A stretch of 64,000 bases of DNA from Chthoniobacter sp. (GCA_034667665.1 JAXDQW010000039.1:40210-104209); one strand, 5' to 3'; shown: positions 1-15,800, counted from the first letter of the stretch. The notes: generated from the sequence alone by a model not told the origin. Program-made: numbers and translations.

Positions 1-2
1 GA

Positions 3-176
3 ACAGACGGATCGCGCCGGTGCGGAATGAACAGTCAAAACATTGTTGCCAGGAAAAAAGACATTCTAGCCTCGGTAGCACCTTCACGGAAGTCGGACCG
101 CGAACGGTTTCAAAAGCAGATTCTCGAAGTAGTTGAATCTGTTCACCAGAAGATAAAGGCAGCTTCTGCCGCCTAA
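3..176 (+). CDS. Possible 3' end of a hypothetical gene. The frame is open to the window edge. An internal ATG at 27 would give a 49-aa peptide, MNSQNIVARKKDILASVAPSRKSDRERFQKQILEVVESVHQKIKAASAA.
   Basis: Own translation of frame 3, with stop TAA at 174-176. It is convergent with the 371..4387 gene. No family recognised. Too short for the ORF track. Confidence 0.2.
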   Translation, partial: TDGSRRCGMNSQNIVARKKDILASVAPSRKSDRERFQKQILEVVESVHQKIKAASAA

Positions 177-370
177 GTTCGCGCTGACGGAGCTATCCAA
201 GAAACCACCGAGAAGCGACACTTTGAGAACCGGTCGGCGCCTCGGGCCGCGGCACGAATTTCCCGCGCGATCTTTCGGCGTAGCACCCGTGGCGACTTAG
301 CGGCGCTTCATCCGGCAGCAGCCACATCGGTGACGCAGAAAAATTGATGGCCCCCAGACCCGGCCCGACT

Positions 371-3300
371 CTACACTGCTTCCGCCCCCCAAAGCGTGAA
401 CGACCCTTGGAAGCCCTTGAACTTCACGTTGGGATACTTAATCCAGCGCACCTCAGGATTGATCGTGGCACGGCGACGATCGACGCTCCGCTTTACTTCA
501 TCACTGAATCGAATGCCGTCCCCCTTTGCGTGAGACATTACTCGCGCTGTGAAGTTGAGATTTTGGCCCCAAGCGTCGCCGAATCCCCATCTGGCGCTGT
601 CGTCGATGTTTACCTCTCCGGAATGAACACCCACGCGAATACGCACCGCAGCATGGCCAGTCTCGCCATAAAGCGCCGTTGCAAAGTTCGCTGCGTTTTG
701 AGCGTCGTGAAAAAGCGCGAGGATGCCATCGCCTGTGTTCTTAACGAGAAATCCACGTCCCTGACGGATAAGGAATATTGCACGGGCGAAGTGGCCATCC
801 CGGATCTGTCCCCAAGGCGTTTCGCCCAAGTCGTTGCAGAGCTTCGTGCTATCCACAATATCCGTGAATACAGCGGCAACCGAAAGAACTGTTGCTCCTC
901 CCGTCCATTTCTTAAGCGCGTTCTTCTCGATTGCTGTCATGGAAACGAGCGCCTTTTCGGCCTCCACTTTGGCACGTTGAGCGGCAATGGCATTGCGAAC
1001 CTTTTTCGGGGCAGCTTGATTGTCGTCTTGAAATTTCTCCGGATTTATCTGCCAGTCCTGAAAGAACTCCTTTAACGCCGGGTCGCTGCGCTCCAACATC
1101 ACGAAAAGGCGATTGACCGCCTTCAAATCGCGAACTCGCAAGATTACCTTAACACTACCGCGCCGAGTTCCGACAACCTTAAGCTGCTCGGACGCTATAC
1201 CGAGTAATGTCGCAATTTGCTGGCGAATGGCTTCCAATTCGATTTTACTCAAAGTCGGCACCTCCACCGGAAGCACTATTCGCTGGCTCGCCCGCGTGGA
1301 TTCCTGAGCCGCACCAGAAACACTGAGTAAGACCGTCGTAACCTGCTCAACCAGTTGAACAGGATCCATTTCTGCCGGTCTCCGACCTAGGATGCCGGCG
1401 ACAAGATTCGCCAGCGGCCGCGGGTTGTCTGACTGCAGTTCTCGCAGATCCACCCACCCGAACGATTCCAAAAAAGTGGGCAGCTTCGGTTGCCGTCGGG
1501 CTCCAGGCAAGAGAACAGGGATTACGGCTGAACCCCGCTTGACAAACTTGCGGATAAAAGCCGCCGCTTCTTGGTCCTGCCATGGACCGATACCTCTGGC
1601 TCCGACACATACCACCGCTGACTTCACACGCGCGATCGCTTGCTGAAGCAGCTTTTGCCACGGGCGCCCCGGCACCAAATCCCAGATGTCGAGCCAGGGG
1701 CGGATCCCGACGCTGAGCAATCCTTCGGCCAGTGTCACGACCTGCGCACGATCCTTCGTATTGTAGCTTAAGAAAACATCGTATTCGCCAAGACGATTCT
1801 TGCCTTCGATCGCCGCCGCCGCGAGCTGTCGGCGGCGCATCACTTCGGCGTCCGCGTCCATTTGCCGCTCGCCCTTTCGAGCGTTGTCATTCTCAAGCAT
1901 CATCAGGTCGAAGAGCGGAGTTCGCTCGTCACAATTCGGGCATGCAATGTCTGCCTTACCCAACTTCAGCCGGTTCTCGATTAGGGCTTCATCCCACTCG
2001 TATCCGCAAGCCCGGCAGAAATATAGTCTGTGCGTCACGATACTGCCCGGTGTGGCCTTCGACTCCAAGTGCTGACGCACGAAGCGTAGAAAAGCGTGCT
2101 GCTCATCCACTCGCGGATTATCTTCGAAATACACACTCATCGTGCCCTGACCCGGTGCCCGCTGGCGTTCATCGAGCACGACGGAACAACGACCTCCTGC
2201 CTTCGCCTCGTAACAGGCCGCGTCGCGGAAAAACTCGGTCTTTGTAAACTCCCTATGATGCGCGAGACGCACGACCAAGGTAGTGAATATGGAGCGTGTC
2301 GCTCCCTCAAAATCGAACGCGATGCCCGGCGCGTTGCGCCGTGGGTAGGGGGCTTCTCGGGTGTATTCCGAGGGGAAGACCAAGTAGTCGCCATCTTGGG
2401 GTCCCCCTTCTTCGATCCGCTCTCGTAGCGCAATGTCGTGGCCCAGCAACCGCTCTACTGCCACGGCCAACACCCGCCGCTCGTGTTCCCGGTGGGCGAT
2501 CCGCTCCTCCCTAGGAAGACCCAGTTTCCCCGCCACGACGTCACTTTCCAGAAGATGACCGATGCCACGCGGGTCCTCTTTCCGGGCAGCGAGCAACAGA
2601 GCGGAGGCATATCCATCGATGTATTCCGGTTGGAGCAGCACAAACTCGGCTTCCTCTTCCTCCGCCTTGAAAGCGCGGAACTTCAGCAGTTCGACGAATC
2701 CCGCCGCTTCCAGGCGGTCCACGCACGTCCGGAAATCAGCAAAGGTGGCTTTACGCAGCCAGCGATCTGAAGATTCAGCGCATCGTTTGAAGAGATCGTC
2801 CACCCGTTCCACCGGCGCCTCGTCGCCATCCGCCTTTTCCTTCTGAAGGAATTGTCTGATCGATACGAACAACTGATTGGAGCCGACCTCCTCCAACTCG
2901 TCCCACCGAACTGCGCCACGGATCGCCTCAGCCAGCTTCCGAACACCTTCGCCCGTTTTCGAACTGGTTTGAAAGACGCCTGCGAAATCGTTTTGGTGAG
3001 CGAAGCGCTCCAATTCCTCGGGACTGACTGCGAGGCCTCCACGATCAATTCGCGCCACGACGAGAAACTTGGTGATAGGCACGGCGGAACGTGCTTGGGC
3101 AATGGCTCGTGCCCAATATTCTACGACGCCGAGGGGATCAGTCTCGCTCCGAGCATCGACCAGCACGAGCGCCACGGCAGCTTGGTCGATATTGAGCTGA
3201 TGGACTAGACGGTATCCCGGTTGCCCCGCCAAATCCCAGAGCATGATCTCTCGTATCTGTCGACGCCCAAACCCCAACGAGACCTCCGTTTGTTTGAGTG

Positions 3301-4387
3301 ACCAAATGCGCCGAGCATGCGTCGAATCCGTCGGTTGAAACTCCTCGCCAGCCAATACCATGCCCAAGGCGGACTTTCCGACACCAGTGTCGCCCACCAG
3401 CACCACTTTGGCATTGCGGTAACTGATGGAGTCTTGGGCCAACTGGTTCTCGTCAAGCCGCGCGAAATCGATGTGCCAGACTCGGATCACCTCTCCGTCT
3501 TGTCCCTCGGCAACCGTGAGCAGGTGCGTGCCGGCCGGGCTGAAGGCGACGCGCGTATCGGCCGCCCAGTGGGGGATCGCGACAGGAAGATCAGCCATAC
3601 TCCGACCTGACTCAAGTTCCCAAATGCGAGCCGTGTTGTCCGCCGAATCGGTGGCCGCCCAGCGTCCGTCCCTACTGATGGCGAGTCCGACGACGTTGCT
3701 GTTGTGGCCTTCCAAGGTTCGCAGCAGTCTCCCGCTGGATGCATCCCAAACGCGCACGGTCTTGTCCTCGCACGCGGCCACAACCAATCGGCCATCAGGC
3801 GTCATTGCCACTGATGAGACGGAGCCGAGACCGACTTCCATCGTCCGAAGAAGCCGGCCAGAAACCAATTCCCACACACGGACCTTTCCATCCCATCCGC
3901 CGGAAATGATCGAATTCCCATCCGGCGTGACAGTCACGGAACAAACCGTGCCACCATGCCCTTCGATGGCTCGGAAGAGCTTGCCGGAGTTCAGTTGCCA
4001 AACCCACACCATTCCGTCGCTGCCGCCGGCAACTACCGATCGGCCATCAGGCGTGACCGCAACCGAAGTTACAAGGTCGCGGTCGCCTTCCAAGTCTCGG
4101 AGGAATCGGCCGGATTCGAGGTCCCACACAGACATCGCCCCGTCTTCACCTCCAGAAATCACCCAGCGTCCATCGGGCGTTACTGCGACTGCCAAGATAA
4201 CGCGAGGACGATTCTTCATCGTCCGCATCAGGCACCCGGATTCCAGATCCCAAACACGAACTGTGTGATCGCTGCCCCCAGAAATCACCGTCCGGCCATC
4301 GGATGTCACAACGAGGCTCTGAATCCCTTTCTGGTGACCGACGAGTTCGAGAACTGCCGTGATGCCCGTCGGGAGACTACCGCTCAC
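371..4387 (-). CDS. Multidomain protein of 1338 aa: WD40 propeller, Roc-type small GTPase, COR-like region, Zn ribbon, TIR domain, class III nucleotidyl (adenylate-type) cyclase.
   Basis: ORF track; GTG start preceded by GAGGAG. Seven 'DG..(V/I)..G..D..(V/I)W(D/E)L' blades. G1 GDTGVGKS (aa 332-339), G3 DLAGQ (385-389), G4-like ARID (445-448), G5 SSK (475-477). CxxC at 791-794 and 816-819. TIR motifs 'YDVFLSYNTKD' (869-879) and 'GPWQDQE' (934-940). Cyclase motifs 'FTDIVDST', 'KNTGDG', 'RVGVHSGEV', 'GDAWGQNLNFTAR'. Confidence 0.88.
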   Translation of the reverse strand: MSGSLPTGITAVLELVGHQKGIQSLVVTSDGRTVISGGSDHTVRVWDLESGCLMRTMKNRPRVILAVAVTPDGRWVISGGEDGAMSVWDLESGRFLRDLEGDRDLVTSVAVTPDGRSVVAGGSDGMVWVWQLNSGKLFRAIEGHGGTVCSVTVTPDGNSIISGGWDGKVRVWELVSGRLLRTMEVGLGSVSSVAMTPDGRLVVAACEDKTVRVWDASSGRLLRTLEGHNSNVVGLAISRDGRWAATDSADNTARIWELESGRSMADLPVAIPHWAADTRVAFSPAGTHLLTVAEGQDGEVIRVWHIDFARLDENQLAQDSISYRNAKVVLVGDTGVGKSALGMVLAGEEFQPTDSTHARRIWSLKQTEVSLGFGRRQIREIMLWDLAGQPGYRLVHQLNIDQAAVALVLVDARSETDPLGVVEYWARAIAQARSAVPITKFLVVARIDRGGLAVSPEELERFAHQNDFAGVFQTSSKTGEGVRKLAEAIRGAVRWDELEEVGSNQLFVSIRQFLQKEKADGDEAPVERVDDLFKRCAESSDRWLRKATFADFRTCVDRLEAAGFVELLKFRAFKAEEEEAEFVLLQPEYIDGYASALLLAARKEDPRGIGHLLESDVVAGKLGLPREERIAHREHERRVLAVAVERLLGHDIALRERIEEGGPQDGDYLVFPSEYTREAPYPRRNAPGIAFDFEGATRSIFTTLVVRLAHHREFTKTEFFRDAACYEAKAGGRCSVVLDERQRAPGQGTMSVYFEDNPRVDEQHAFLRFVRQHLESKATPGSIVTHRLYFCRACGYEWDEALIENRLKLGKADIACPNCDERTPLFDLMMLENDNARKGERQMDADAEVMRRRQLAAAAIEGKNRLGEYDVFLSYNTKDRAQVVTLAEGLLSVGIRPWLDIWDLVPGRPWQKLLQQAIARVKSAVVCVGARGIGPWQDQEAAAFIRKFVKRGSAVIPVLLPGARRQPKLPTFLESFGWVDLRELQSDNPRPLANLVAGILGRRPAEMDPVQLVEQVTTVLLSVSGAAQESTRASQRIVLPVEVPTLSKIELEAIRQQIATLLGIASEQLKVVGTRRGSVKVILRVRDLKAVNRLFVMLERSDPALKEFFQDWQINPEKFQDDNQAAPKKVRNAIAAQRAKVEAEKALVSMTAIEKNALKKWTGGATVLSVAAVFTDIVDSTKLCNDLGETPWGQIRDGHFARAIFLIRQGRGFLVKNTGDGILALFHDAQNAANFATALYGETGHAAVRIRVGVHSGEVNIDDSARWGFGDAWGQNLNFTARVMSHAKGDGIRFSDEVKRSVDRRRATINPEVRWIKYPNVKFKGFQGSFTLWGAEAV
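374..895 (-). other. Class III nucleotidyl cyclase catalytic domain, aa ~1165-1338.
   Basis: Metal-binding D1176 (FTDIVDST) and D1220 (NTGDG). Specificity pair K1216 and D1271. Transition-state N1278 and R1282 (WGQNLNFTAR). Confidence 0.85.
1388..1786 (-). other. TIR domain, aa ~868-1000.
   Basis: 'EYDVFLSYNTKDRAQV', 'AVVCVGARGIGPWQDQEAAAFI', 'SAVIPVLLPG'. W936-x3-E940 sits where the catalytic Glu of NADase TIRs is found. Confidence 0.8.
1928..2020 (-). other. Zn-ribbon (CxxC-x21-CxxC), aa ~790-820.
   Basis: 'YFCRACGYEWDEALIENRLKLGKADIACPNCDERTP'. Confidence 0.6.
2033..2890 (-). other. COR-like (C-terminal of Roc) helical/winged-helix region, aa ~500-785. Assigned by position and composition only.
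   Basis: About 290 aa directly after the Roc-type G domain, as in ROCO proteins. I cannot point to a diagnostic motif. Confidence 0.4.
2903..3415 (-). other. Ras/Roc-like small GTPase domain, aa ~325-495.
   Basis: P-loop 'VVLVGDTGVGKSAL', switch II 'WDLAGQ', 'VVARID' (degenerate NKxD, as in Roc domains), 'TSSKTGEG'. Confidence 0.8.
3473..4360 (-). other. WD40 beta-propeller domain (7 blades), aa ~10-305 of the 1338-aa protein.
   Basis: Seven repeats ending VRVWDL, MSVWDL, VWVWQL, VRVWEL, VRVWDA, ARIWEL and IRVWHI, each preceded by (T/S)PDG or SxDG. Confidence 0.85.
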
Positions 4388-4513
4388 ACGATCTCCTCAC
4401 GAAGCCGAGATCCCCGGGAATTTCTCGGACCGAGGCCGAAAACACTGAGCATCGGCAATGCGCACCTAAAGCCGGCGTATCGCGTCTGACCAGTCGCGAC
4501 ACAGCGGCGGCGG

Positions 4514-4921
4514 TTACGGCAGAACGGGTGGTTCCTGCACCGCTTTTCGGATGCGGGTCCACATCGTTCGCCGCTTAGGCTCGTTCGACTCAAGCACTTC
4601 ACGCCAGCCGAGTTCCACCAAGTAAATCAGCACGAAGTGGCACAACACGTTGATCGGATCGGCTTTTGGCGACTTGTCCCGCACCCATGCTGCCGCTCGG
4701 GCAAAATCGTCTGCCGTTGATCCAACGTGAATGATGCCGCTGACCAAGGGCAGGCTTCCGGTGATGAACATGGCGTATGCTTGCTTCTGGGCAGTGACGC
4801 CTGAATAATTTTCTTGGAGCCGTTCGAGGATAATCTGCTTGTTTTCCTCGATGAAACGATCCACGCGCAGCAGTTCTTCGACCACGTGTGTTGCTGGCTT
4901 GAACTCTTGAAGTGCTCGCAT
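4514..4921 (-). CDS. Hypothetical protein, 135 aa, no recognisable domain. Lies 126 nt upstream of the TIR-cyclase gene and is co-directional with it.
   Basis: ORF track; ATG start; ordinary amino-acid composition; no competing ORF with better support. The region looks more AT-rich than the core genome. Confidence 0.55.
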   Translation of the reverse strand: MRALQEFKPATHVVEELLRVDRFIEENKQIILERLQENYSGVTAQKQAYAMFITGSLPLVSGIIHVGSTADDFARAAAWVRDKSPKADPINVLCHFVLIYLVELGWREVLESNEPKRRTMWTRIRKAVQEPPVLP

Positions 4922-4977
4922 GTCGCTAGTTGATTCGATGAAAGGGGTTGTTTGGACGGGTGATCAGGTGAAAGGCG

Positions 4978-6201
4978 CTAAACGAAGTGGCAAGTCAGTG
5001 GGCGGTCAAGCACCTCATGGAAGCATGTGCCGGTCCGAACATCAAAATGTTCCTGATGGCCACGCCCCCTGCCTGCCGCACTGCGCATGAAACGGTGTAG
5101 GCAGGTAGCGGAGCGACAGGGAAGCGTTTTCCAAGAAAATTGTTTACGCTGATTCCCGGGCTCAGGCGATTCTAGATGGGGATACGTAACGGCACCGAGG
5201 CGTGCATTCGTCGCAAACCCGTAACCCTGATACGGGGAAAACCGCGAGCCGATGGCAAACCACTCTGGCGCCTCCGAAAAGCGATGGAGTTCCGGCGTAA
5301 AACTCAGATCCATGTGCGCAAAAAAACGCGGCACAAAGGCAAGTTGGATTGCCCCCGTGCCGGTGAGTGCTGGAGCTGGGACTGGTTTCACAAGCAATTC
5401 TTCTAGAAGATAATCTGTCCCTGCTAGCAAGCTGATTATCCGGTAGAATTGATAGCGCTCCCGACTTTCGGGATCGCCTGGAGCGATGTCAAAGGCTGCC
5501 GACGCAAGGGTGATGCTAGCACGAACCGGACCGCTCGATTTTGAGACGAGTTCATACGGCTGGTCAAACAGCTGCACACGCTGGTAGGTTGGGGCACTCG
5601 AACCGGGAAGCTCAAGCCTCAATTCGTCAACCTGCATGCAGCGTTTTTCGGGGTCGTGGCCTTCCCATCCCTTGAGGGCTGCCGCGAAGGCATCGAGCAT
5701 TTCAAGTCCGTCCAGCCGAACGCTTGTGGCCGCGCCGGCATACCAGTTCTTCGCGGGGTCGCCGGGTGAAGGTAGAAGATTGAAAGACGCTGCCAACCGT
5801 TCATTGCTCAGCTGCACGACCCGTGGTTGCCCATTTGGATCACTGTCAAGCACTTTATAGTGCGCCTTTTCCTCCTGTTGCGATCTAGAACTGCGACGTC
5901 TGAGCGTAAAAATGACAGAAGGGGCGGAGCCGTTGACAGGCTCGATCTTGCGCGGCAAAGAAAAAATCAACGTGTCCCGCGCTGGGTCAACTTGGCAAGG
6001 GATCTCCAGGTCCGACTCGTCCACCAAGGCGACTTCGTCCGGGCCGATGCCCATGCGTGCTTGGATAGGGTGCCAAGCAACCGATGCCCATCCGCCGCGA
6101 GGATAGCTGGAGTGATTGAATACGAACAACTGGTCGGGCATCGATGAAAGTTGGGGCCGGGAGAGCGATCCAGTGGGCACCTTTATCTGTTCCGCCAGCA
6201 C
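4978..6201 (-). CDS. Hypothetical protein, 407 aa from the GTG at 6201, or 387 aa from the ATG at 6141 ('MPDQLFVFNHSS...').
   Basis: ORF track; co-directional with the 135-aa ORF, 56 nt away. No family recognised. The Cys/His/Arg-rich last ~50 aa look atypical, so the 3' end may be degraded. Confidence 0.55.
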   Translation of the reverse strand: MLAEQIKVPTGSLSRPQLSSMPDQLFVFNHSSYPRGGWASVAWHPIQARMGIGPDEVALVDESDLEIPCQVDPARDTLIFSLPRKIEPVNGSAPSVIFTLRRRSSRSQQEEKAHYKVLDSDPNGQPRVVQLSNERLAASFNLLPSPGDPAKNWYAGAATSVRLDGLEMLDAFAAALKGWEGHDPEKRCMQVDELRLELPGSSAPTYQRVQLFDQPYELVSKSSGPVRASITLASAAFDIAPGDPESRERYQFYRIISLLAGTDYLLEELLVKPVPAPALTGTGAIQLAFVPRFFAHMDLSFTPELHRFSEAPEWFAIGSRFSPYQGYGFATNARLGAVTYPHLESPEPGNQRKQFSWKTLPCRSATCLHRFMRSAAGRGRGHQEHFDVRTGTCFHEVLDRPLTCHFV

Positions 6202-6646
6202 GCAGCAAAGGACTTTCTAAACTTTTTCATTTCGGACATCTTTTGAACGATCCGCAACCGTCGGAGCGAGTTTACGACGTTCCGTGAAAACCCACAAAGG
6301 GCGCAAGTGATCCTGCACCGAAAGGGCGCCACCTCCACGGGTTTCGGCGTGCTCGGCATCATCCCTGGAGGTGGCTTCACAGGGCTCTGTCGTGCGGAAT
6401 GGCGGATTTGAGCAAGTCACTGCAGTCGGGCTTCCAGAGATCTGATATCACTAAAACGCCACGGCGGGAGCGGAATTGGCCCTCCTGTCGAGCGCCGTCA
6501 ATTCGGCCCTCGTCCTCCTCCGACCGTCAAGCCGCCGTCCGCCACAAAAGCGGCCATGGGCGCTGAGTCGGGCGAACACCTCCGGCGTGAAGAGATGGTT
6601 CCGCAGGGGTCGAGGCCCGTTGCCGTGGATTCGATTCGGGGCACCG

Positions 6647-8443
6647 TTAGCCGCCAGCACCAAGCCGATTCGATTCCGTCCACGCTTCAAGCTCGGGTGG
6701 TAGAGGGTCGCGCCCACTCCACTTGCGTGTGCCATCCGGGGTGGGTGCTATGACAAGCGTTCTAGAGGCTCCCGTTCCGACTTCTTGAAAAGCAAGCGCT
6801 TCGGGTCTGTTTCCGATCGTAATCACCCAGCGAGTGACAGCGTTCGAAAATGTCACGGCGAGAAGCGGCTCCGCGCTGTTGATTCTCACCCTGTAGTCTG
6901 GTCCCTGCCACTCGCGCCGAAGACCTCGTGGATACAAGTCGATTCTCGCGATTTTTCTGTGGATCTCATCACGAAGGCGGATTCGACCCTCGCGGTCAGT
7001 CGCCTTCAGGGCCAACTGTTTAAGCCTCGTCGCGTTATTCTCGAACTCTTCGATGGCCTGACGCCTAATTTTGAAATCTTCTTCCTTCAGCGCGAGTCGC
7101 CCTTCCGCCTCAGAAAGATCCGTCTCGAGTTGACCAAGTCTTTTCACCAACGCAGCCGGTGGATCGCTGGTCGTTTGGATCGCGGCTAGAACCTTCTCGA
7201 CCCCATCGCGCAGACTCTGGACCTCCGACACGATGCTCGCCAGCTCTTCGTCGTCCCCGGTGGCGCCCGATTCCTCACCTTCACTCAAAACGCGCTTCCA
7301 GTCGAGTTCGTGAACGAAACGCAGGAAGAGGTTTTCGAAGTGAGGATATTTCCAGGTGCAGGGCGGTGCGCTTGGGTGCGTTCGTCGCCGATCTGAAACG
7401 AGGTATTTCCATTTTCCTTCCCCGCGTTTGCGAGTGCCCTTGTCCACGAATCGCATGACGGCACCGCTATATCCATCGAAAGCGATTTTGCTGAAAAGAT
7501 TGGAGACCTTGTCGCCGATTGGCCCGGGAACGCTCCGGCTTCGACAATTGACACTGCGGAAAACCTTCTCATCGATAATTGCGGGAAAATAGCCGGCGAT
7601 GGGATCCCCGTCCGGAATCCTCTTCCCTTCAACCATGCGGTGCGGCTGGAACTCCCCGAGAACTGCGCGGTTCGCCAGAATTTTTTGGATGTAGCTATCG
7701 TGCCAGCCGTTGCCACGACGCTTGCCCTTGCCCCATGGTTCGATCCCTTCCTGGTTGAAGCTTTTTGCTATCGAACGCTTGCCGTGACCCGCATCAGCGA
7801 GAGCGAACAGCCGGCGCACCAAACGCACGCGCTCCGGGATCTTTTCGAAAGCGGTTCGCGTTGCGTTCAGGGCGAGCCATCCAGGCGCCTGCGCTGTCAG
7901 TTTTCGTTCTCCTATCGCCCTGCGCTTGTTCACCCAAGCGGCGGAAAGGCGTTTCGATTTCGTCGCCGATTCTTCATGGGCTCTCGCCATGATCACCAAG
8001 CTCATCATCAGGTTTCCCATGTTCTGGTCGAGCGAGCCTTTGCTGTAGGTCATCTCGTCGGCGAGCGTGACCACAATCACCCCAGCGTTGATGATTTCTA
8101 GGAACGTTGGGATCGCTTCGGTCATTTGCGCTCTGCTCAATCGGTCCAACGACTCAAGGAGCAAATATGATCCAGGGGGGACCTTCTTGGCGGAGATGGC
8201 CTCCAAAAACGTCGCGAGCGCTCCGGTTGTTTTGTTTTTTCCGCGGAATGCGGAAACGCCCAGATCATGGAGGTTCAGCTGGTCGTCCAGAACAAGACCG
8301 TGCTCTCGAGCATAACGCTCGGAGATCTCAAGTTGCCTGCGCAAGCTGTCGCCCTTCAACTGCTCCGGAGTTGAAAACCGGATGTAGCTGAAGGCCAGGG
8401 GTGGCCGGCTCGGCTTGATGGATCTTGTAGGAATTGCTGACAA
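6647..8443 (-). CDS. Large serine recombinase (serine integrase), 598 aa.
   Basis: N-terminal resolvase-type catalytic motif 'AFSYIRFSTPEQLKGDSLRRQ', 'LLLESLDRLSR', then a long recombinase/coiled-coil C-terminal extension. Apparent TTG start. Sits at the extremity of the inserted DNA. Confidence 0.9.
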   Translation of the reverse strand: MSAIPTRSIKPSRPPLAFSYIRFSTPEQLKGDSLRRQLEISERYAREHGLVLDDQLNLHDLGVSAFRGKNKTTGALATFLEAISAKKVPPGSYLLLESLDRLSRAQMTEAIPTFLEIINAGVIVVTLADEMTYSKGSLDQNMGNLMMSLVIMARAHEESATKSKRLSAAWVNKRRAIGERKLTAQAPGWLALNATRTAFEKIPERVRLVRRLFALADAGHGKRSIAKSFNQEGIEPWGKGKRRGNGWHDSYIQKILANRAVLGEFQPHRMVEGKRIPDGDPIAGYFPAIIDEKVFRSVNCRSRSVPGPIGDKVSNLFSKIAFDGYSGAVMRFVDKGTRKRGEGKWKYLVSDRRRTHPSAPPCTWKYPHFENLFLRFVHELDWKRVLSEGEESGATGDDEELASIVSEVQSLRDGVEKVLAAIQTTSDPPAALVKRLGQLETDLSEAEGRLALKEEDFKIRRQAIEEFENNATRLKQLALKATDREGRIRLRDEIHRKIARIDLYPRGLRREWQGPDYRVRINSAEPLLAVTFSNAVTRWVITIGNRPEALAFQEVGTGASRTLVIAPTPDGTRKWSGRDPLPPELEAWTESNRLGAGG

Positions 8444-8486
8444 CGCAAATTGAACGTAGCTGACCGCCGGGGTGAATCAACCACAA

Positions 8487-9143
8487 TATGAGCAGATTAT
8501 GCGCTCCGGACACGGCGACTTCGATGGCCCGTTTCGCGTGGTGCTGGCCGCGCACTTCGGAAAAGTCCACCTCGTAGGACTGGTGCCGCTGGAAGAATTC
8601 CGTGACATCCTCCCGGGTGGGCGTGAGCTGTCGCTCCCCGGTCAGGAATTCGAACGTCTCGCGCAAGGTGCGCACGCCAAACACGTCGATTCCTTTCACC
8701 ATCGCGGCTTCGCGGGCATTGGCCTCGGGAACGATGACGGCGCGGCGGCCTTGCTTGCGAGCTTCGAGCGCGATAGGCAGGACACCTTTGACCGGGCGCA
8801 CCTGCCCGGTGAGCGCGAGTTCGCCGACGAAGGAATACTTTTCCACCTCGAGCAACTCGACCTCCATGCCGACCGCGATCATGGCCAGCGCGATCGGCAG
8901 ATCGAAGCTCGGGCCCTCTTTTTTGACGTCGGCCGGCGCGAGATTGATCGTGGTCCGCCCCCGCGGCCAGTGATAGCCGCTATTGGAAACCGCGGTGGTC
9001 ACGCGGTCGCGGCTTTCTTTGACTGCGACATCGGGCAAGCCCACCACGACGATGGCGGGAAGTCCCGAGGCGGCATTGACTTCGATCTCGACCTCGAAGG
9101 CGTCCACGCCATAGACGGCAGCCGAATAGACTTTTGCCAGCAC
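8487..9143 (-). pseudogene. comM: 5' fragment (~219 codons) of a comM/yifB-type Mg-chelatase-like AAA+ ATPase gene, truncated by the insertion.
   Basis: 'VVGLPDVAVKESRDRV', 'TINLAPADVKKEGPSFDLPIALAMI', 'FSEVRGQHHAKRAIEVAVSGAHNLLI', then nonsense ('LWLIHPGGQLRSICVV') exactly where Walker A GPPGxGKT is expected. The rest of the AAA+ domain is missing. Confidence 0.85.
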
Positions 9144-9379
9144 GTTGCGGCGACGGTGGCAGAGACGGAGCGGGAAGTAAAACTTTGAACAGGACCTAAG
9201 AAAAGGGGTCCCAGAACGTATTACTTAAGGTGATTGACTACTGATGCCGCGAGATAATTTTTTTTCTTGAATTCCCCTGTCCCGCATCCATTGTAATCAC
9301 ATCAGAGTCACCAGAACGCATCCAACGGACCCCGTTCGCACGCATACTATTTGCTATTTAGAAAGCCAGAGGCACCAAA

Positions 9380-10258
9380 ATGAACTATAAATCAGGCGAA
9401 GACTCCGACTCGGGGATCAAAATCTACCTCCGCGAAATCGGGCAAATTCCGCTGCTAACGCCCGAGCAGGAGATCGAACTCGCCGCCAAAATCAAAAAGG
9501 GCGACAAGGCGGCCCGCTCGCTCATGATCCGCTCGAATCTGCGGCTGGTCGTGAAGATCGCCCACGACTACGCGAATCTGGGCCTCCCGCTTCTCGACCT
9601 CATTTCCGAAGGCAACATCGGGTTGATGAAAGCCGTCGAGCGCTTCGATCCGGCCAAGGGCGGCAAGCTCTCCACCTACGCCGCCTGGTGGATCAAGCAG
9701 TCGATCAAGCGCGCCCTGGCGAACCAGTCGAAGACGATCCGTCTCCCGGTCCATCTGGTGGACAAAATCTCCAAGATGCGCCGCGTGGCGCTGCAGATGA
9801 GCGAAGAACTTGGGCGCGAGCCCACCGACGATGAGCTGGCGGAAGAAGTCGGCCTGTCCGCGGGGAAAATCTCGCAGCTCAAGACCGTCTCGATTCGCCC
9901 GGCCTCGCTCGATGCGCCGATCAGCGATGACGACTCCACCGAGTTCGGCGAGATCGTCGGCGATCTCGAGGCGTTGACGCCGTTCGAGATGCTGCGGGAT
10001 CAGAACCTGCGCGACGAAGTCGGCGACCTGCTGCGGGTCCTCGATGACCGCGAGAAGAAGATCATTTTCTCGCGCTTCGGTCTCGATGGCGGCAAGGCCA
10101 AGACGCTCGAAGAAGTCGGCAAGAAGTTTGGCGTGACCCGCGAACGCATCCGGCAGTTGCAGAACATCGCGCTGATGAAGCTGCGCCGGGCATTGCAAAA
10201 GAAGGAGAAGCCGATCGAGGCGCTCCTTCCCTCGCACCAGGCGGACTTCGAAGAATAA
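9380..10258 (+). CDS. RNA polymerase sigma-70 family factor (RpoD/RpoS-like, 292 aa, no long region 1.1).
   Basis: '[23 protein letters not shown]', '[11 protein letters not shown]', '[18 protein letters not shown]', '[14 protein letters not shown]', '[28 protein letters not shown]'. Confidence 0.92.
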
Positions 10259-10318: not shown

Positions 10319-10741
10319 CTGGGTGCCGCGGCTTGGGAATCGACTCCCCGAGGCGCCGGTCCCCGGGGCAGAGCCCCGGAACGTCTGCGCACGAGGGCAC
10401 AGAGCCCTCGCGCGAGCGCGTTGTGCGGATGGACGCCTCATCTTCCACCCGTTAGCTTCGGCCCGAGTTGATTTTGGAATTTTCCACGCCGGACCGCAGC
10501 CGGACTTCGAGTTTTTTCTGGGAAAGCGGCGCACGCTCTTTTCCTTTCACAATGCGATCTTCGAGCTCGGCAAAAAGACAGGCCCAAAAGTTATTGGAAC
10601 CGATACAGAATACAGCAGTTCCTCGCAGCAGCGTGACGGTTGCCATCTGAATGAAACAGGCCACGCGCTTTGGGCGGCGAACCTTTCCCTTCGGGGATAC
10701 GAACTCGGTTATCTTAGGGCGAGGCAGTCTTTGGAAATCAC

Positions 10742-10984
10742 GTGACTCTGCGAGCGGAAGCCCTCCTTGGGGTCATCCGCGCCAAGAACCGCCTGTGGTC
10801 CTATTACTGGCGGCCGCAGAACTGGGCATTCCTCGCGGGGGATCGCATCAACCAGCCGTCGAGCCGCGACCATCTCGATTCGTCGAAACGCTGGTTCCCG
10901 GACGAAATCGAACAATTCATCCCGCTCATCGAAGCCAAAGAGCGCGAGATCGACGTCCTCGCCGCCCAACTCGCCAAACCATGA
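10742..10984 (+). CDS. Small hypothetical protein (80 aa).
   Basis: ORF track. Ordinary composition. Its stop overlaps the next ATG (ATGA). No family recognised. Confidence 0.3.
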   Translation: MTLRAEALLGVIRAKNRLWSYYWRPQNWAFLAGDRINQPSSRDHLDSSKRWFPDEIEQFIPLIEAKEREIDVLAAQLAKP

Positions 10985-11196
10985 ATCTGCTACCCCGATT
11001 GTCTTGCGCGGTGCTCGCTCTCCTCGCGTTCTCTTCCTACACCCTCGCACAGGAACCCGACAAGGACGACCCCGCGGCCGAGCTCGGTTCCTTTGCGTCT
11101 CTGCGCCTCTGCGTTTTCCACAGCCGATGCACCGCTACGGCACGACCCGGAGCTGGATGCTGTCGAAGCGTTCCTCGCCGGCGAGCATGTCGCTGA
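10981..11196 (+). CDS. Signal-peptide ORF (71 aa), probably a gene remnant.
   Basis: 'MNLLPRLSCAVLALLAFSSYTLAQEP' is a good signal peptide. After ~35 aa the frame runs into a dispersed CTTTGCG repeat and then overlaps the pyk 3' end. Confidence 0.2.
   Translation: MNLLPRLSCAVLALLAFSSYTLAQEPDKDDPAAELGSFASLRLCVFHSRCTATARPGAGCCRSVPRRRACR
11091..11119. repeat. Copy of the dispersed CTTTGCG(Y)CT(Y)TGCG motif.
   Basis: 'ctttgcgtctctgcgcctctgcgttttcc'. Related copies at ~33685 and ~50341. Confidence 0.6.
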
Positions 11197-12535
11197 CGAT
11201 GACGAGATGATCGCCCGAGGCGGCCAGCTTTTGCTCGACGAGATAATTCATCGCGGCACCGATCGTTCGGTTGGGATTGCTGTCAAAGGTGAGCTGATGG
11301 GGAAAGGTGCCCCAGTTGGCCGAGAGTTTGCGGCACAGCTCGAAGGTCGGCGCAAAGGCGTAGATCGGGGCGTTCGGACGCTGCCCGGAAATGTAATCGG
11401 CCATGGTGCCGCGGCGGGTGAAGACAACGAGCTTGGCGTCGGGTAACGAATTGGCGAGGGAGACCGCGGAATGCACGGTCTTGTGCCGATCGTTTTCGAG
11501 CAAGGCCTCCACGGCGAAGTTGGCTCCGCCGCTGCGCTCGATGCGCTGCGCGACTTTGTCGAGCACTCGCACGCAGGCGACGGGGTATTTTCCGACCGTG
11601 GTCTCGCCGCTGAGCATGACGCAGTCCGCCTGTTCGTAAACGGCGTTGGCCACATCCGTGATTTCGGCCCGCGTGGGGACGGGGTTGCTGATCATCGATT
11701 CGAGCATATGCGTCGCGACGATCACCGGCACGCCGCGCTGGAGACAGCGCTTCACGATCCGACGCTGGATGATCGGCAGCTCTTCCATCGGGCACTCGAT
11801 GCCAAGATCGCCCCGGGCGACCATGACCACGTCGGTGGTCTGGATGATTTCGTTGATGTTCTTGATCGCGAGCTGGTCCTCGATCTTGGACACGATGCGC
11901 GCCGCGCTGTCGTGGCTGCGGAGGACTTTGCGCAGCACCTCGACGTCATTGGGCTCCCGGCAGAAGCTGAGCGCCACGAAATCCACCTGCAGCTCGGCGC
12001 CGACGGCGACGTCGGCGAGATCTTTCTCGGTGAGTGGCGGCAGGTTGACCTTCACGCCGGGCAGGTTGATGTGCCGGCGGGAGCCCATGATCCCAGACGT
12101 CAGCACTTCGCACCGGATCTTGCTGCCCTCCTTCGAGAGCACCTTCATGTGGATGTTGCCGTTATCGACGAGCACGGTGTCGCCCACGGAAATATCATCG
12201 ATCAGCCCATCGTAATTTACGCCCACGGAGTTCACTTCCTCGCTGACCGTGCCGCGGACCGTGAACTCGAAGACATCACCCACCTTCAAATCCAGCTTCG
12301 TGGGCAGGTCCCCGGTGCGGATGGCCGGACCCTGCGTGTCCATGAGAATGCCCACGATCACGTCCAGCTCTTTGGCAATGGCTCGAATGCGGGGAACGAT
12401 CTGCCGCACCCACTCGTGGGTGGCGTGACTCATGTTGAGCCGGAAGATGTTCGCTCCGGCTTCGATCATCGCGTGCAAGACTTCCGCCGACTCAGTGGCC
12501 GGCCCCAGGGTGCAAATGATTTTGGTTTTTCGCAT
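11135..12535 (-). CDS. pyk: Pyruvate kinase (466 aa from 'MRKTKIICTLGP').
   Basis: 'KIICTLGPATES', 'NIFRLNMSHATHEW', 'MVARGDLGIECP', 'VIVATHMLESM'. The 88-codon upstream extension in the ORF track is encoded by heptamer repeats and is not credited. Confidence 0.95.
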   Translation of the reverse strand: MRKTKIICTLGPATESAEVLHAMIEAGANIFRLNMSHATHEWVRQIVPRIRAIAKELDVIVGILMDTQGPAIRTGDLPTKLDLKVGDVFEFTVRGTVSEEVNSVGVNYDGLIDDISVGDTVLVDNGNIHMKVLSKEGSKIRCEVLTSGIMGSRRHINLPGVKVNLPPLTEKDLADVAVGAELQVDFVALSFCREPNDVEVLRKVLRSHDSAARIVSKIEDQLAIKNINEIIQTTDVVMVARGDLGIECPMEELPIIQRRIVKRCLQRGVPVIVATHMLESMISNPVPTRAEITDVANAVYEQADCVMLSGETTVGKYPVACVRVLDKVAQRIERSGGANFAVEALLENDRHKTVHSAVSLANSLPDAKLVVFTRRGTMADYISGQRPNAPIYAFAPTFELCRKLSANWGTFPHQLTFDSNPNRTIGAAMNYLVEQKLAASGDHLVIVSDMLAGEERFDSIQLRVVP

Positions 12536-12658
12536 CGGCGACGGAAACCCGGTTCGCGCTGCAAAAGCAACGCGAAACGCCCGGGACCGGCGGCGAAACG
12601 ACCGCTCGTCCTCCGTCAGCCTGGAAGGAAGGTGGGGTGACGGTTGGCGCGGTGAGGA

Positions 12659-12773
12659 ACACCCAACACCCAATGGGACCTCGCGGACGTGCGCCAGCGG
12701 CATTGGATGTTGGATGTTGGGTGTTGGGTGTTGGGTGTTGGGTGTTGGGTGTTGGGTGTTGGATGTTGGATGT
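12659..12773. repeat. Heptamer tandem array with a short inverted arm. Ten TGG(A/G)TGT units, 12704-12773; arm AACACCCAACACCCAATGG at 12659-12677.
   Basis: Counted directly: 2x TGGATGT, 6x TGGGTGT, 2x TGGATGT. Six GGG runs are spaced by TGTT. Confidence 0.9.
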
Positions 12774-12796
12774 TCCTCACCTCTTCCTCCCGCCAG

Positions 12797-12860
12797 CAAA
12801 CGCCGAACGTCGAACTCGCCTCTCAGCGTTCAGCGTTCGGCGTTCAGCGTTCGACGTTTG
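12797..12860. repeat. Second heptamer/hairpin unit: CAAACGCCGAACGTCGAAC, loop, then GCGTTCA GCGTTCG GCGTTCA GCGTTCG ACGTTTG.
   Basis: Read directly. Imperfect inverted repeat plus 4-5 tandem 7-mers, between the stop of the 12871 gene and pyk. Confidence 0.85.
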
Positions 12861-12870
12861 CTGCCGAGGC

Positions 12871-15800
12871 CTACTTCGCGAAGGCCTTGTCCTTGGAATT
12901 TCCCGCCGACATCAAATACGCGACGAGGTCCAGAAGTTCGTCCTGATTGAGGGCATTGATCAGTCCCGGGGGCATCATCGAGACGTTGAAAGGCTTGCGC
13001 GACTTGATGTCGGACATATCCACATCGACGTGCATGTCCGGCGCCAGCGGGCTGGTCATGACCAGCAGCTTGCCATTTTCCTCAGCCACGACGCGGCCGA
13101 TGATGCGGCTTCCGTCCTTCTTCTCGATTTCGTCCGTGCCGTATTGATCGCTGATGACCTTCGACGGCTCGATGATGTTTTCCATGAGATCGCGCACCGT
13201 GTAGCGGCTCCCTGACCCGGTGAGGTCCGGTCCAATGTTGCCGCCTTCGCCGCCGAAGTGATGGCAGTTGATGCACAGCGTCGAAGCGAACATCGCTTTG
13301 CCCTGCTCGAAGTTGCGGCCATGCAGTCCGTTCTTCGCGAGAGCATCCACTTCGTCCACGGTGTAGTTCTTGCCGGGGCCCTTGGGAGCGACGAAATTCG
13401 CGGGCGGCGCGGGCGGCGCTTTCCTGGACATCTCATCGAGCGCGGCTTTCTCGTTCGGATCGGTCACGAGATTGGCCAGCGACTCGGTGCGGATGTTGTC
13501 CAGAAACTTGGTGAAACTATTGCCGCCTTTCCAGGCGTGGGTCCGCGGGAACCAGGCAAAGAAGGCCTTCCTCAACCCCGGCGTCCAACCCGCTGTGGCG
13601 TTGCGCAGCGCGTAGGCATAGGCGATTGCCTGGCGATTGGGACGGCTGGCATGCAGGCCCGCGACCGCGTTGGCGTAACCGGTGTTTCGGGCGAGCACTG
13701 CTTCGCTCGCGATGGTCACGTCGCTATCCTTGGCGGTGTCGAGGAGAGGAACGGTCTTCGCGACAATGCTCGGGGAATCCAGCAGCACCAGCATTGAAAC
13801 GAGTTCGCGGTTCACCAGCGGGTCGCTGTGCGGAAAGAGCGGATCGAACTTCGCCGCCAATTGCTTGCACACGTCGGGCGCGGGTTTGCCCAGGCGAGTG
13901 AACGCAAGCTCCCAGGCTCGCAGCAGCGGCAGGCGCAATTCCTCGGGCACGCGGGTAAACTCCAGCTTCCCGAGCGCTTCGAAGAGCCGCGGTTGCAGGG
14001 TCTTGTCGCCGACGCGGGCGAGTGCGATGAGCGCTTCGATCGCCGCCTGCGGATTCTTTTCCCCGAGCGCACGGTCGGCCCATTTCGCGGCCGGCTGATG
14101 CTCGATGGCGATGCGCGCGGCGAAGCGGAGGAAGCGGTCCTTGCTCGCGAGATGAGGCCACGCCTGGTCGATCGCCGCGGGTCCGGTGCCCTCGGCTTGC
14201 AGCGCTTCGAGCTCGTGGCGCAACTTCGCCTCGGCCGTCGGTGGAAGAGGGGCCACCGGCGCGGTGCTGTCCTTGCCCGTATAGACGACCCGATAAAGCG
14301 ACGACTGATTGTTGCGGCCGCCGACGGTCAGATACATCGCGCCATCTTGCGGCCGGATGACCACATCCGTCACCGAGAACGCCCGGCCGCCGATGAACTC
14401 CTCCTTTTCGCCGCGAAAGCTCGCGCCGTCAGGCGTCAGATGGATGGCCCACACCGTGGCGTAGGTCCAGTCCAGCGCGAAGAAAGCGCGCTGATATTTC
14501 GCGGGGAATTTCGCCCCGGTCCCAAAAATCGTGCCGGTGGGTGAGCCCGGTCCGATGTTCACGACGGCCGGCAGCGAATCGGCGTAGTATTCCGGCCAGC
14601 GGCCGGCGCCGGAGCGCCAGCCGTAGTCGCCGCCGCTCACGATATGGTTGATGCGGGTGGGCATGTACCAGGGCGTGCCCATGTCCCATTCCATATCCGA
14701 GTCATAGGTGAAGAGCTCGCCATTCCCGTCGAAGGCGAGGTCGTATTTGTTGCGGAAACCGCCCGCGAACAGCTCGACCCGCTTCGCGTCGGGGTCGGTT
14801 TTGCAGACGTAACCGCCGGGCGCGAGGATTCCCTTGGCATGGCCGTTCGCGTCCCACATGCGCGGGAGGACATGGTCTTCGCCGATCGCCACGGGCCGCG
14901 CGTACTCGAGGTTGTCAGGCAGCTTCGTGTGATTGCCGCTCGCCAGATAGATCGACTTGCCATCCGGGCCGAGAGCGAGGCCATGGGGGCCGTGTTCGCC
15001 GCTCCCCTGGATTTTGCGGAGGAGTTCGGGCTTCTCGAACTGGTCATCGCTGGGGCGGTATTTCAAACGCCAGAGGCCGGTCTCGCGTCCGCTCGACTTT
15101 TTTTGGCCGTCCGCCGTGGTCGTCGTTTCATTGACCATCACATAGAGGCTGTCGAAGGCGTAAAGAAGTCCGTGCGCCCCGCTGATCTCGGCTTTGATCG
15201 GTTCGACGGTTGTTCCCTCCTTGCTTCCGAGCGGCGGCACGGTCACCCGAAAAAGGCCGCCGTATTGATCGCCGGTGATCAGCCGGCCTTTCGGATCCAC
15301 GGTCATGGAAACCCAGGAGCCTTGTTCCGCTTTCGGCACCGAGTAGATCATATCCACGGTAAAGCCGGGTGCGACGTCGAGCGCGGCCGGATCGGCCGGC
15401 ACGGACCCGCCTCCGCGCCCGGACGACTGCTTGCCGGAGAAAGCGTCGCCCCAGGGCGCGGCGCCGTACTTTGCAATGACCGTCACCGGTTCGAAATCCG
15501 TGCTCCCGGCTGGCGCTCCCAGCCAGTCCGGCCCGGACTCGATCACCGTTTTTTTCCCGTCGGCCGTCTCGATGGTCAGCGTCGCCACCAACGCGGCCGA
15601 ACCATCCTTGTTTCTGGCCTCGAAGCGCAGTTCGTTTTCGCCCGCCTTGAGCAGCTTCGCGACGTCCACTTTTTGCGGGAACATCCAGTCCGGGTTCTCG
15701 CCGGCCTTGGCTCCGTTCAGCAGCGCGGTCGAGCCGTTGTCGCAGGTAAACTCGAGCGTCGCGGATTTCACCGCCCCGGCGATTGGAAAGCTCTTGCGGA

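Follow-up and report, generated by a model that had tools for sequence, protein, structure and literature searches.

For more than fifteen years, bacterial Roco proteins have stood in for LRRK2, the Parkinson's-disease kinase, in structural work. In the searched literature, no paper gives these bacterial proteins a biological role, and the only function proposed for them, that of immune switches, is a computational proposal. Here we analysed a gene of this kind, named the ROCO gene below, which lies in a stretch of 64,000 nucleotides from Chthoniobacter sp. (GCA_034667665.1 JAXDQW010000039.1:40210-104209). This whole stretch is called the window, and positions are counted from its first letter unless a locus number (L) is given. 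From the sequence alone, the gene had been read as an NLR-like immune sensor in which a Roc-COR switch connects WD40 repeats with a TIR domain and a class III cyclase. On balance, we lean towards this reading: the ROCO gene appears to encode a single-chain, NLR-like immune sensor in which a Roc-COR GTPase switch replaces the STAND ATPase. It is a good candidate for a GTPase-switched anti-phage sensor, with an immune role that is probable rather than proven, as most homologues stand in ordinary chromosomal neighbourhoods.

A related kind of system was predicted by Kaur et al. (2021, eLife, PMC8195603), who described computationally a set of counter-invader systems combining an AP-GTPase (Roc) with COR. 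These systems have N-terminal leucine-rich repeats (LRRs) that evolve quickly and a choice of at least 24 C-terminal domains, among them TIR and effector-associated domains (EADs) (PMC8195603). In the source data of that paper, the 'COR+TIR' strings number about 580, each given as LRR-AP-GTPase-COR-TIR, and there is no 'WD40+AP-GTPase', 'COR+cNMP' (cyclic nucleotide monophosphate) or bacterial 'COR+TRADD' string. In the bacterial TRADD-N proteins of the same work, the TRADD-N domain comes after an effector, for example TIR, and before a variable C-terminal domain (PMC8195603). Chlorobium tepidum (C. tepidum) Roco (CtRoco) is a compact dimer in which the N-terminal repeats are folded back on Roc-COR, and upon GTP binding these repeats swing away by about 135 degrees; its oligomeric state is nucleotide-dependent and the GTP-bound 'active' form is a monomer (PMC11052575). 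No experimental study of a Roc-COR defence system was found in the searched literature. The sequence-only reading had stated that no characterised defence system is known to be built on a Roc-COR switch; this stands, while the kind itself had already been predicted (PMC8195603), and the claim of novelty was overstated but not empty.

The ROCO protein shares with the AP-GTPase-COR systems (e.g. the LRR-AP-GTPase-COR-TIR protein Npun_F6039) an N-terminal repeat sensor, a Roc-COR middle and a variable C-terminal effector; in both, TIR is the commonest output, EAD adaptors occur and the hosts are mostly filamentous or complex bacteria. It differs in that its family has a WD40 sensor and not LRRs, a COR domain too divergent for the Pfam model with an invariant four-Cys ribbon after it, and outputs that extend to class III cyclases, a TRADD-N-like adaptor and PtuA/PtuB of Septu. 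CtRoco and LRRK2 give the best Roc (CtRoco) and COR matches and have the same layout of N-terminal repeats, Roc-COR and C-terminal output, whereas the window protein has WD40 repeats instead of LRRs, a G4 motif of the form A-R-x-D instead of N-K-x-D, and TIR plus cyclase where CtRoco has no output and LRRK2 has a kinase and WD40. The Avs, bNACHT and TIR-STAND systems also join a repeat sensor, an NTP switch and an effector activated by oligomerisation, with WD40 sensors and TIR effectors among them, but the window protein uses a Ras-like GTPase with COR rather than a STAND AAA+ ATPase, and its order is sensor-switch-effector as opposed to effector-switch-sensor. Pycsar (PycC, PycTIR) likewise brings a nucleotidyl cyclase and a TIR together in one candidate defence unit, and the window cyclase has weak matches to PycC. 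However, the window cyclase is of the standard class III with an adenine-specifying K/D pair, much nearer to the Mycobacterium avium enzyme Ma1120, and it lies downstream of a sensor-switch, whereas the Pycsar cyclase is itself the sensor; no cNMP-binding domain lies between or beside the window cyclase and TIR. With bacterial TRADD-N proteins it has in common the order of TIR, TRADD-N-like domain and variable C-terminal domain and the Gly-Ser turn at strands 2-3, but in the window protein a ROCO chassis carries the module, the Pfam score is sub-threshold and the fold search was unconfirming. By defining features, the window protein belongs neither to Thoeris nor to Pycsar and can be described as a WD40-fronted form, with a cyclase output, of the predicted AP-GTPase-COR kind.

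Domain architecture of the ROCO protein

The ROCO gene is an intact open reading frame (ORF) with a GTG start, and the public gene call on L091, the contig bearing the window sequence, gives it an equal length. In order, its product contains seven WD40 blades, Roc, COR, a four-Cys zinc ribbon, TIR, a TRADD-N-like domain, a long helix and a class III cyclase (Table 1). The WD40, Roc, TIR and cyclase domains named in the sequence-only reading were each recovered by Pfam profile search, and its COR-like call was borne out by AlphaFold2 modelling and Foldseek, not by Pfam. Its motifs were found in place (GDTGVGKS 332-339, DLAGQ 385-389, ARID 445-448 and SSK 475-477), as were the CxxC-x21-CxxC ribbon, with 21 residues between the pairs C791/C794 and C816/C819, and the catalytic residues K338, E940, D1176 and D1220. 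It had overlooked the TRADD-N-like domain, the helix of about 40 residues and the two co-travelling upstream genes, A and B. All seven WD40 blades are readable in the translation, and whole-propeller models span amino acids (aa) 12-307.

The closest PDB sequence match of the Roc domain is C. tepidum Roco (3dpu/6hlu/8r4b, E 5e-9). Residue conservation of the switch, ribbon and TIR was counted over 121 family sequences, of which 116-118 keep K338, DxxGQ 385-389, R446/D448 and the SAK motif. The G4 motif (window 3046-3057, aa 445-448) is A-R-I-D in place of N-K-x-D; its Arg and Asp are invariant in 118/118 aligned relatives, and the guanine-specifying Asp is retained. A Pfam search of aa 500-790 gave no COR match. 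The COR region (aa 495-835) was modelled by AlphaFold2 from an alignment of 53 family members, with a predicted local distance difference test (pLDDT) of 89.4 and a predicted template-modelling score (pTM) of 0.81. When this model was compared with the PDB using Foldseek, the top 22 matches were all C. tepidum Roco COR or human LRRK2, and those to 3dpu/3dpt had E-values of 3e-10 to 1e-9 over about 335 aligned columns. The TM-scores were near 0.4, as expected of a two-lobed hinged domain, and sequence identity to the COR structures was about 13%. Since the Roc domain matches CtRoco and the COR model matches COR folds, the gene product is, as modelled, a true ROCO (Roc-COR) protein whose COR has diverged.

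The zinc ribbon was modelled at pLDDT >90 and packs after COR-B; all four of its cysteines are invariant (121/121), and its Pfam matches are weak. Pfam gave a single STAND-family match, to nSTAND3 at the P-loop, which stayed below threshold (13.5 bits, cut-off 27.2; E 0.06). The NTPase is Ras-like, and membership in the STAND/NLR NTPases of the NACHT/NB-ARC type was ruled out.

E940 of the TIR domain stands in a W-x-x-x-E context, with the Glu present in 114/121 members and W936 in 117/121. By its fold and catalytic Glu, the TIR is predicted to be of the catalytic class that cleaves NAD+ (NADase-type). The region after it (aa ~1033-1120) has a beta-alpha-beta-beta-alpha topology in the AlphaFold2 model, which agrees with the RRM-like sandwich of TRADD-N domains, where the turn from strand 2 to strand 3 has a conserved Ser. 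PF20694 (TRADD-like_N) scored 16.7 bits on the ROCO protein, under the cut-off of 23.7, and was the sole recurrent family in a scan of relatives (9/20, best E 2.8e-5); most relatives carry Gly-Ser at this turn. With this domain, Foldseek found no TRADD structure, its matches being generic ferredoxin-like folds (best E 0.035), and a PDB profile search gave no specific match. The weak profile matches make a TRADD-N-like domain likely, not proven. One continuous helix, from aa 1125 to 1163 (model residues 121-159), then runs into the cyclase and may act as a signalling-helix-like linker.

Among PDB entries, the cyclase matches best to the adenylyl cyclase Ma1120 (E 7e-13). It has the metal-binding D1176 and D1220, the substrate-specifying K1216 and D1271 and, for the transition state, N1278 and R1282, and position 1281 is Ala, not Tyr. 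The catalytic residue set is kept in 19-21 of the 21 cyclase-bearing family members. In Ma1120, mutagenesis showed that K101, D157, A167 and R168 set the preference for ATP (PMC4215837), and K1216, D1271 and A1281 of the window cyclase correspond to the adenine-specifying K101, D157 and A167. These residues predict an adenylyl cyclase and not a pyrimidine cyclase of the Pycsar type. The PycC models of PADLOC matched it weakly (E 1e-4 to 4e-4). A fused Pycsar was ruled out, as no cNMP-binding domain was found in the ROCO protein or beside cyclase-bearing genes, and no cNMP receptor was among the recurrent families in 84 neighbours of the 21 cyclase-bearing loci. The analogy with Pycsar drawn from the sequence alone therefore fails, both on the adenine-specifying residues and on the lack of an adjacent cNMP-receptor effector at these loci.

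A constant chassis with exchanged outputs

When COR and the zinc ribbon were searched exhaustively with HMMER, 1,210 representatives (clustered at 50% identity) matched, 824 with E ≤ 1e-10; a query from Roc to the C-terminus found at least 801 proteins, and a scan of one genome per species gave 287 encoding stretches. The hosts include Planctomycetota, Acidobacteriota, Armatimonadota, Chloroflexota and Myxococcota, as well as Cyanobacteria (Calothrix, Tolypothrix, Mastigocoleus), Actinomycetota (Actinoplanes, Lentzea) and others, and the nearest genome copies have <50% identity in COR.

Over the family, the WD40-Roc-COR-Zn chassis is constant and the C-terminal output varies. Architectures were counted in the best 80 of the 287 genome stretches, which were annotated with hidden Markov models built from the family. 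TIR alone follows the chassis at 45 of the 80 loci and a cyclase without TIR at 8, while the TIR-TRADD-N-cyclase order of the window protein and the order cyclase-TIR are each found at 3. A TIR-TRADD-N-ATPase (PtuA) end occurs at 3-4 loci, and 7 have an additional N-terminal TIR (TIR-WD40-Roc-COR-Zn-TIR). A class III cyclase with intact catalytic residues takes the place of TIR after the ribbon in L044, L047, L059, L061, L063, L069, L079, L081 and L086, and a cyclase followed by TIR is present in L036, L046 and L067; the cyclase behaves as an interchangeable output module. P0079 ends in TIR-EAD7 (effector-associated domain EAD7, 80.8 bits), and one family member bears an N-terminal protein kinase.

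The C-terminal ATPase tail of P0034 matches PtuA of Septu (E 3e-44). In L010, L012 and L013, the gene overlapping the stop codon of the PtuA-type ROCO gene is PtuB (HNH), with E-values of 5e-31 to 7e-34, and the downstream gene of L050 matches PtuB with E 1e-47. Judged from these matches, a ROCO gene ending in PtuA together with its PtuB gene is a full Septu defence system fused to the ROCO chassis. The catalytic Glu of TIR is lost (to Ala) in exactly the four PtuA-type sequences. This constant chassis with outputs swapped as in immune receptors, EAD7 and Septu PtuA/PtuB among them, supports the immune reading.

The sensor end changes fastest. In the closest pair, the WD40 domain is 57% identical versus 77-88% for Roc, COR, zinc ribbon, TIR and cyclase, and it has the lowest identity of the named domains in 9/9 comparisons. 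By these identities, the WD40 propeller is the fastest-evolving named domain.

Other variants and annotation points were also observed. In L002 (9152-13177, closest homologue P0001), the public call of 1058 aa starts late, and a 1341-aa frame includes the full propeller. L016 (6511-11064) and L032 (5911-8658) have second ROCO paralogues a few kb downstream of the first, which are WD40-Roc-COR proteins without zinc ribbon or TIR and with a tail of about 225 aa without assigned domain; that of L016 also has a 580-aa N-terminal extension without assigned domain. The Lentzea members L072 (6467-11473) and L075 (446-5446) carry a 689-aa N-terminal extension before the WD40 propeller.

A portable block on an element in comM

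Genes A and B share the orientation of the ROCO gene and lie upstream of it. DNA similarity to L002, the closest relative, extends from about 25 bp upstream of A to 7 bp before the ROCO stop codon, and in L090, A and B precede a ROCO gene (10530-14543) that the gene call divides into ORFs of 545, 549 and 260 aa, which overlap or abut; this reflects either gene decay or assembly frameshifts. As the block is shared with L002 and L090, A-B-ROCO is a portable 5.8 kb block present in three unrelated contexts (window/L091, L002 and L090). Gene B has 3 sequences in 5.8 billion proteins, each beside a gene A homologue, and no match in Pfam, PADLOC or NCBIfam. The gene A family (~390 aa) has 63 members without known domain, and no match was obtained in Pfam, PADLOC, NCBIfam or PDB sequences. 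Four members of this family have an N-terminal TIR, and one has a PNP_UDP-TRADD-N ahead (38.8 bits, above threshold); because the A domain is fused elsewhere to TIR or PNP-TRADD-N, it probably acts on the same output module. Genes A and B were not found at the other family loci and would be lineage-specific accessories.

The GC content of window 1-10,000 is 56-60% versus about 63% over the remaining window, which is consistent with horizontally acquired DNA. A large serine recombinase directly follows a comM/yifB fragment, and the ROCO gene is 2.2 kb from the recombinase. The recombinase marks, on the right, where an element inserted in comM ends, and the element extends leftward past the window; the 3' half of comM was not found on L091 (130.6 kb), which reaches 5.5 kb left beyond the window. 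The sequence-only reading had placed the ROCO gene near the integrase of an element inserted in comM, and both the recombinase and the interrupted comM agree with it. Counts from a sigma-70 promoter and terminator scan of 1..6800 equalled the shuffle expectation, and such a scan is uninformative for this organism.

A second TIR operon of the element in comM is located at L091 15100-17231, on the opposite strand and 0.2-2.3 kb left of window position 1. It encodes a 124-aa TIR_2 protein (91.8 bits; PADLOC PDC-S66 1e-18, ThsB 1e-7), an overlapping 506-aa protein without Pfam or PADLOC match and a 77-aa DUF4365 fragment. Further left is a 522-aa TPR protein. The ThsB matches are at domain level only. 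Thoeris membership was ruled out, since no ThsA match was found in the ROCO protein, A, B, the second TIR operon or the TPR gene.

Table 1. Positions of the ROCO gene, its domains, neighbouring features and the PtuA-ending relatives
Feature	Position	Strand	Extent in protein	Basis
ROCO gene	371..4387	-	1338 aa	intact ORF
WD40 beta-propeller, seven-bladed, presumed ligand sensor	3458..4360	-	aa ~10-310	PF00400, 171 bits across 6 stretches
Roc (Ras of complex proteins) G domain	2903..3430	-	aa ~320-495	PF08477, 56 bits (cut-off 27)
COR domain (COR-A + COR-B)	2033..2890	-	aa ~500-785	AlphaFold2 model and Foldseek
Zinc ribbon, C791, C794, C816, C819	1898..2032	-	aa ~786-830	Cys invariance, AlphaFold2 model
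TIR domain, catalytic Glu E940	1388..1792	-	aa ~866-1000	PF13676 (TIR_2), 82 bits, aa 871-992
TRADD-N-like alpha+beta adaptor (likely)	1028..1291	-	aa ~1033-1120	weak PF20694, AlphaFold2 fold
Long helix ahead of cyclase, putative signalling-helix-like linker	896..1027	-	aa ~1121-1164	AlphaFold2 model
Class III nucleotidyl cyclase, predicted adenylyl type	374..895	-	aa ~1165-1338	PF00211 (Guanylate_cyc), 38.8 bits (cut-off 21.9)
Gene B, orphan, between gene A and ROCO gene	4514..4921	-	135 aa	three known copies
Gene A, first gene of A-B-ROCO block	4978..6141	-	387 aa	L002/L090 similarity
Large serine recombinase	6647..8443	-	570 aa (public call)	PF00239, 56 bits; PF07508, 44 bits
comM/yifB 5' fragment	8328..9143	-		TIGR00368 profile positions 1-217 of 499 only; ChlI, 151 bits
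PtuA-ending ROCO gene	L010 8462-14241			
PtuA-ending ROCO gene	L012 8273-14202			
PtuA-ending ROCO gene	L013 9779-14793			
PtuA-ending ROCO gene	L050 8585-13791			

Some relatives also have defence-type genes nearby. The L004 gene (9121-14172, P0004) has the architecture of the window protein, and 1.7 kb downstream of it is a DrmC-like PLD gene (E 6e-12); L004 also encodes a 251-aa protein without assignment and an SNF2 helicase matching BrxHI/DrmD (E 3e-82). These downstream genes are possibly a neighbouring defence system. Further TIR genes adjoin family members in L016, L032, L038, L056 and L076. In L056 (8033-14822), on plasmid4 of Calothrix sp. NIES-4101, three more TIR-domain genes come immediately after a WD40-Roc-COR-Zn-TIR gene. 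The sequence-only reading would have fallen if homologues were uniformly core chromosomal genes unconnected with mobile or defence loci; they are not, given the element in comM, the copy on a plasmid, the fusions with Septu, the TIR genes beside family members and L004.

A proposed immune switch and its alternatives

If the ROCO protein is an immune sensor, its propeller would at rest be folded back on Roc-COR, as in C. tepidum Roco, and the protein would be held inactive. An infection-derived ligand on the propeller would shift the GTPase cycle and the COR-mediated quaternary arrangement. The active sites of TIR domains and class III cyclases form only between two or more copies; therefore, one change in self-association could activate both outputs, and the TRADD-N-like domain and the long helix may link the TIR with the cyclase dimer. 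Once active, the TIR would cleave NAD+ or produce a signal derived from ADP-ribose, the cyclase would turn ATP into cyclic AMP (cAMP) as an alarm signal or an ATP drain, and the infected cell would arrest growth or die. The monomeric GTP state of CtRoco does not obviously fit outputs that depend on dimerisation, which speaks against this scheme as drawn; since that state is monomeric, the direction of the switch in the ROCO family is not readable from CtRoco.

The neighbourhoods of the family as a whole weigh against an immune role and also fit a non-immune signalling protein, in which the ROCO GTPase would couple an endogenous or environmental cue sensed by WD40 to cAMP for development, motility or metabolism, with the TIR as a scaffold or a regulatory NAD+ sensor. 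Most homologues are solitary amid ordinary chromosomal genes (Hsp70/DnaJ, two-component systems and planctomycete PSD1/DUF1501), and four other cyclase-type relatives are solitary too, standing, L004 aside, among planctomycete housekeeping genes or two-component systems. The family gene is syntenic among Calothrix species; all-vs-all clustering of 970 neighbour ORFs from 86 loci found no cross-phylum partner and only lineage-level synteny, mainly in Calothrix. In a PADLOC comparison of 148 near and 150 far genes, no clear enrichment was obtained near family members (148 vs 178 families matched, each in one to three genes; these are family counts with no per-protein totals), and on the ROCO protein itself PADLOC recognised single domains and no system. 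The enrichment of homologues in defence islands, for which the sequence-only reading had proposed a test, was thus not shown, with near and far sets alike and most homologues in ordinary neighbourhoods. Furthermore, family members occur mainly in bacteria that are filamentous or have complex development, in which elaborate signalling outside immunity is common too, and the cyclase has the full residue set of an adenylyl cyclase. Class III cyclases of the adenylyl type mostly serve in ordinary signalling. However, a housekeeping cAMP function is hard to square with a cyclase slot which elsewhere holds TIR alone, EAD7 or Septu PtuA/PtuB, and the conserved catalytic Glu of the TIR, the much faster evolution of the sensor than of the remainder and the position of the window copy, as cargo of an integrative element beside another TIR operon, all argue against it. 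We consider non-immune signalling an unlikely, although credible, explanation.

Somewhat less probable still is an immune function of the signalling and not the depletion type, in which the TIR and/or the cyclase would make small molecules (an ADP-ribose derivative or cAMP) for separate effectors, with A, B or unlinked receivers forming a Thoeris- or Pycsar-like system split across loci. Bacterial TIRs do make signals in Thoeris, the A-B-ROCO block moves as a unit in its three contexts, fusions of the A domain to TIR or PNP-TRADD-N point to a functional tie with these modules, and there is the weak similarity to PycC (E 1e-4). Yet A and B are absent at all other cyclase-bearing loci, gene A has no effector or ligand-binding fold recognisable by sequence, no cNMP-binding, SLOG, SAVED or Macro receptor recurs beside family members, and the specificity residues of the cyclase are of the adenine type, unlike those of a pyrimidine cyclase. 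The block could also be regarded as a selfish module, that is, a toxin-like consumer of NAD+ and ATP restrained by A or B, from which the element and not the host would gain by post-segregational killing or competitor exclusion. The distance of 2.2 kb to the serine recombinase of the element, the two small co-oriented upstream genes and the portability of the block would suit this idea, but the great majority of the family is not on recognisable mobile elements and has no A and B, and a sensor-switch architecture of 1338 residues is far more elaborate than known addiction toxins; we hold it to be very improbable.

In conclusion, the reading of the ROCO gene as a single-chain, NLR-like immune sensor draws its strength from the exchange of outputs, the TIR Glu conserved in 114/121 members, the fast WD40 propeller and the mobile context, and is weakened by the ordinary chromosomal neighbourhoods of most homologues, where no clear enrichment of defence genes was obtained. 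A wider proposal, which we put forward tentatively, is that WD40-Roc-COR-Zn proteins may be widespread, uncatalogued pattern-recognition receptors in which a Ras-like GTPase switch would drive TIR, adenylyl cyclase or Septu nuclease outputs by GTP-controlled self-association; the window member would then fire two nucleotide-consuming enzymes together, with cAMP or ATP drain as an immune output. The ROCO family offers a concrete test bed for these ideas, being compact and encoded by a single gene, with unambiguous catalytic read-outs (NAD+ and ATP/cAMP), relatives with Septu outputs as natural 'controls' and one copy on a mobile element. If the immune reading is true, GTPase-switched receptors would join STAND receptors in bacterial innate immunity, and a purine cyclase would be added to the immune outputs. 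It would also support the descent of the eukaryotic ROCO switch (LRRK2, DAPK1) from a prokaryotic immune module. The wider proposal, if true, would provide a first biological function for bacterial Roco proteins and set the switch of LRRK2 and DAPK1 in an ancestral immune role.

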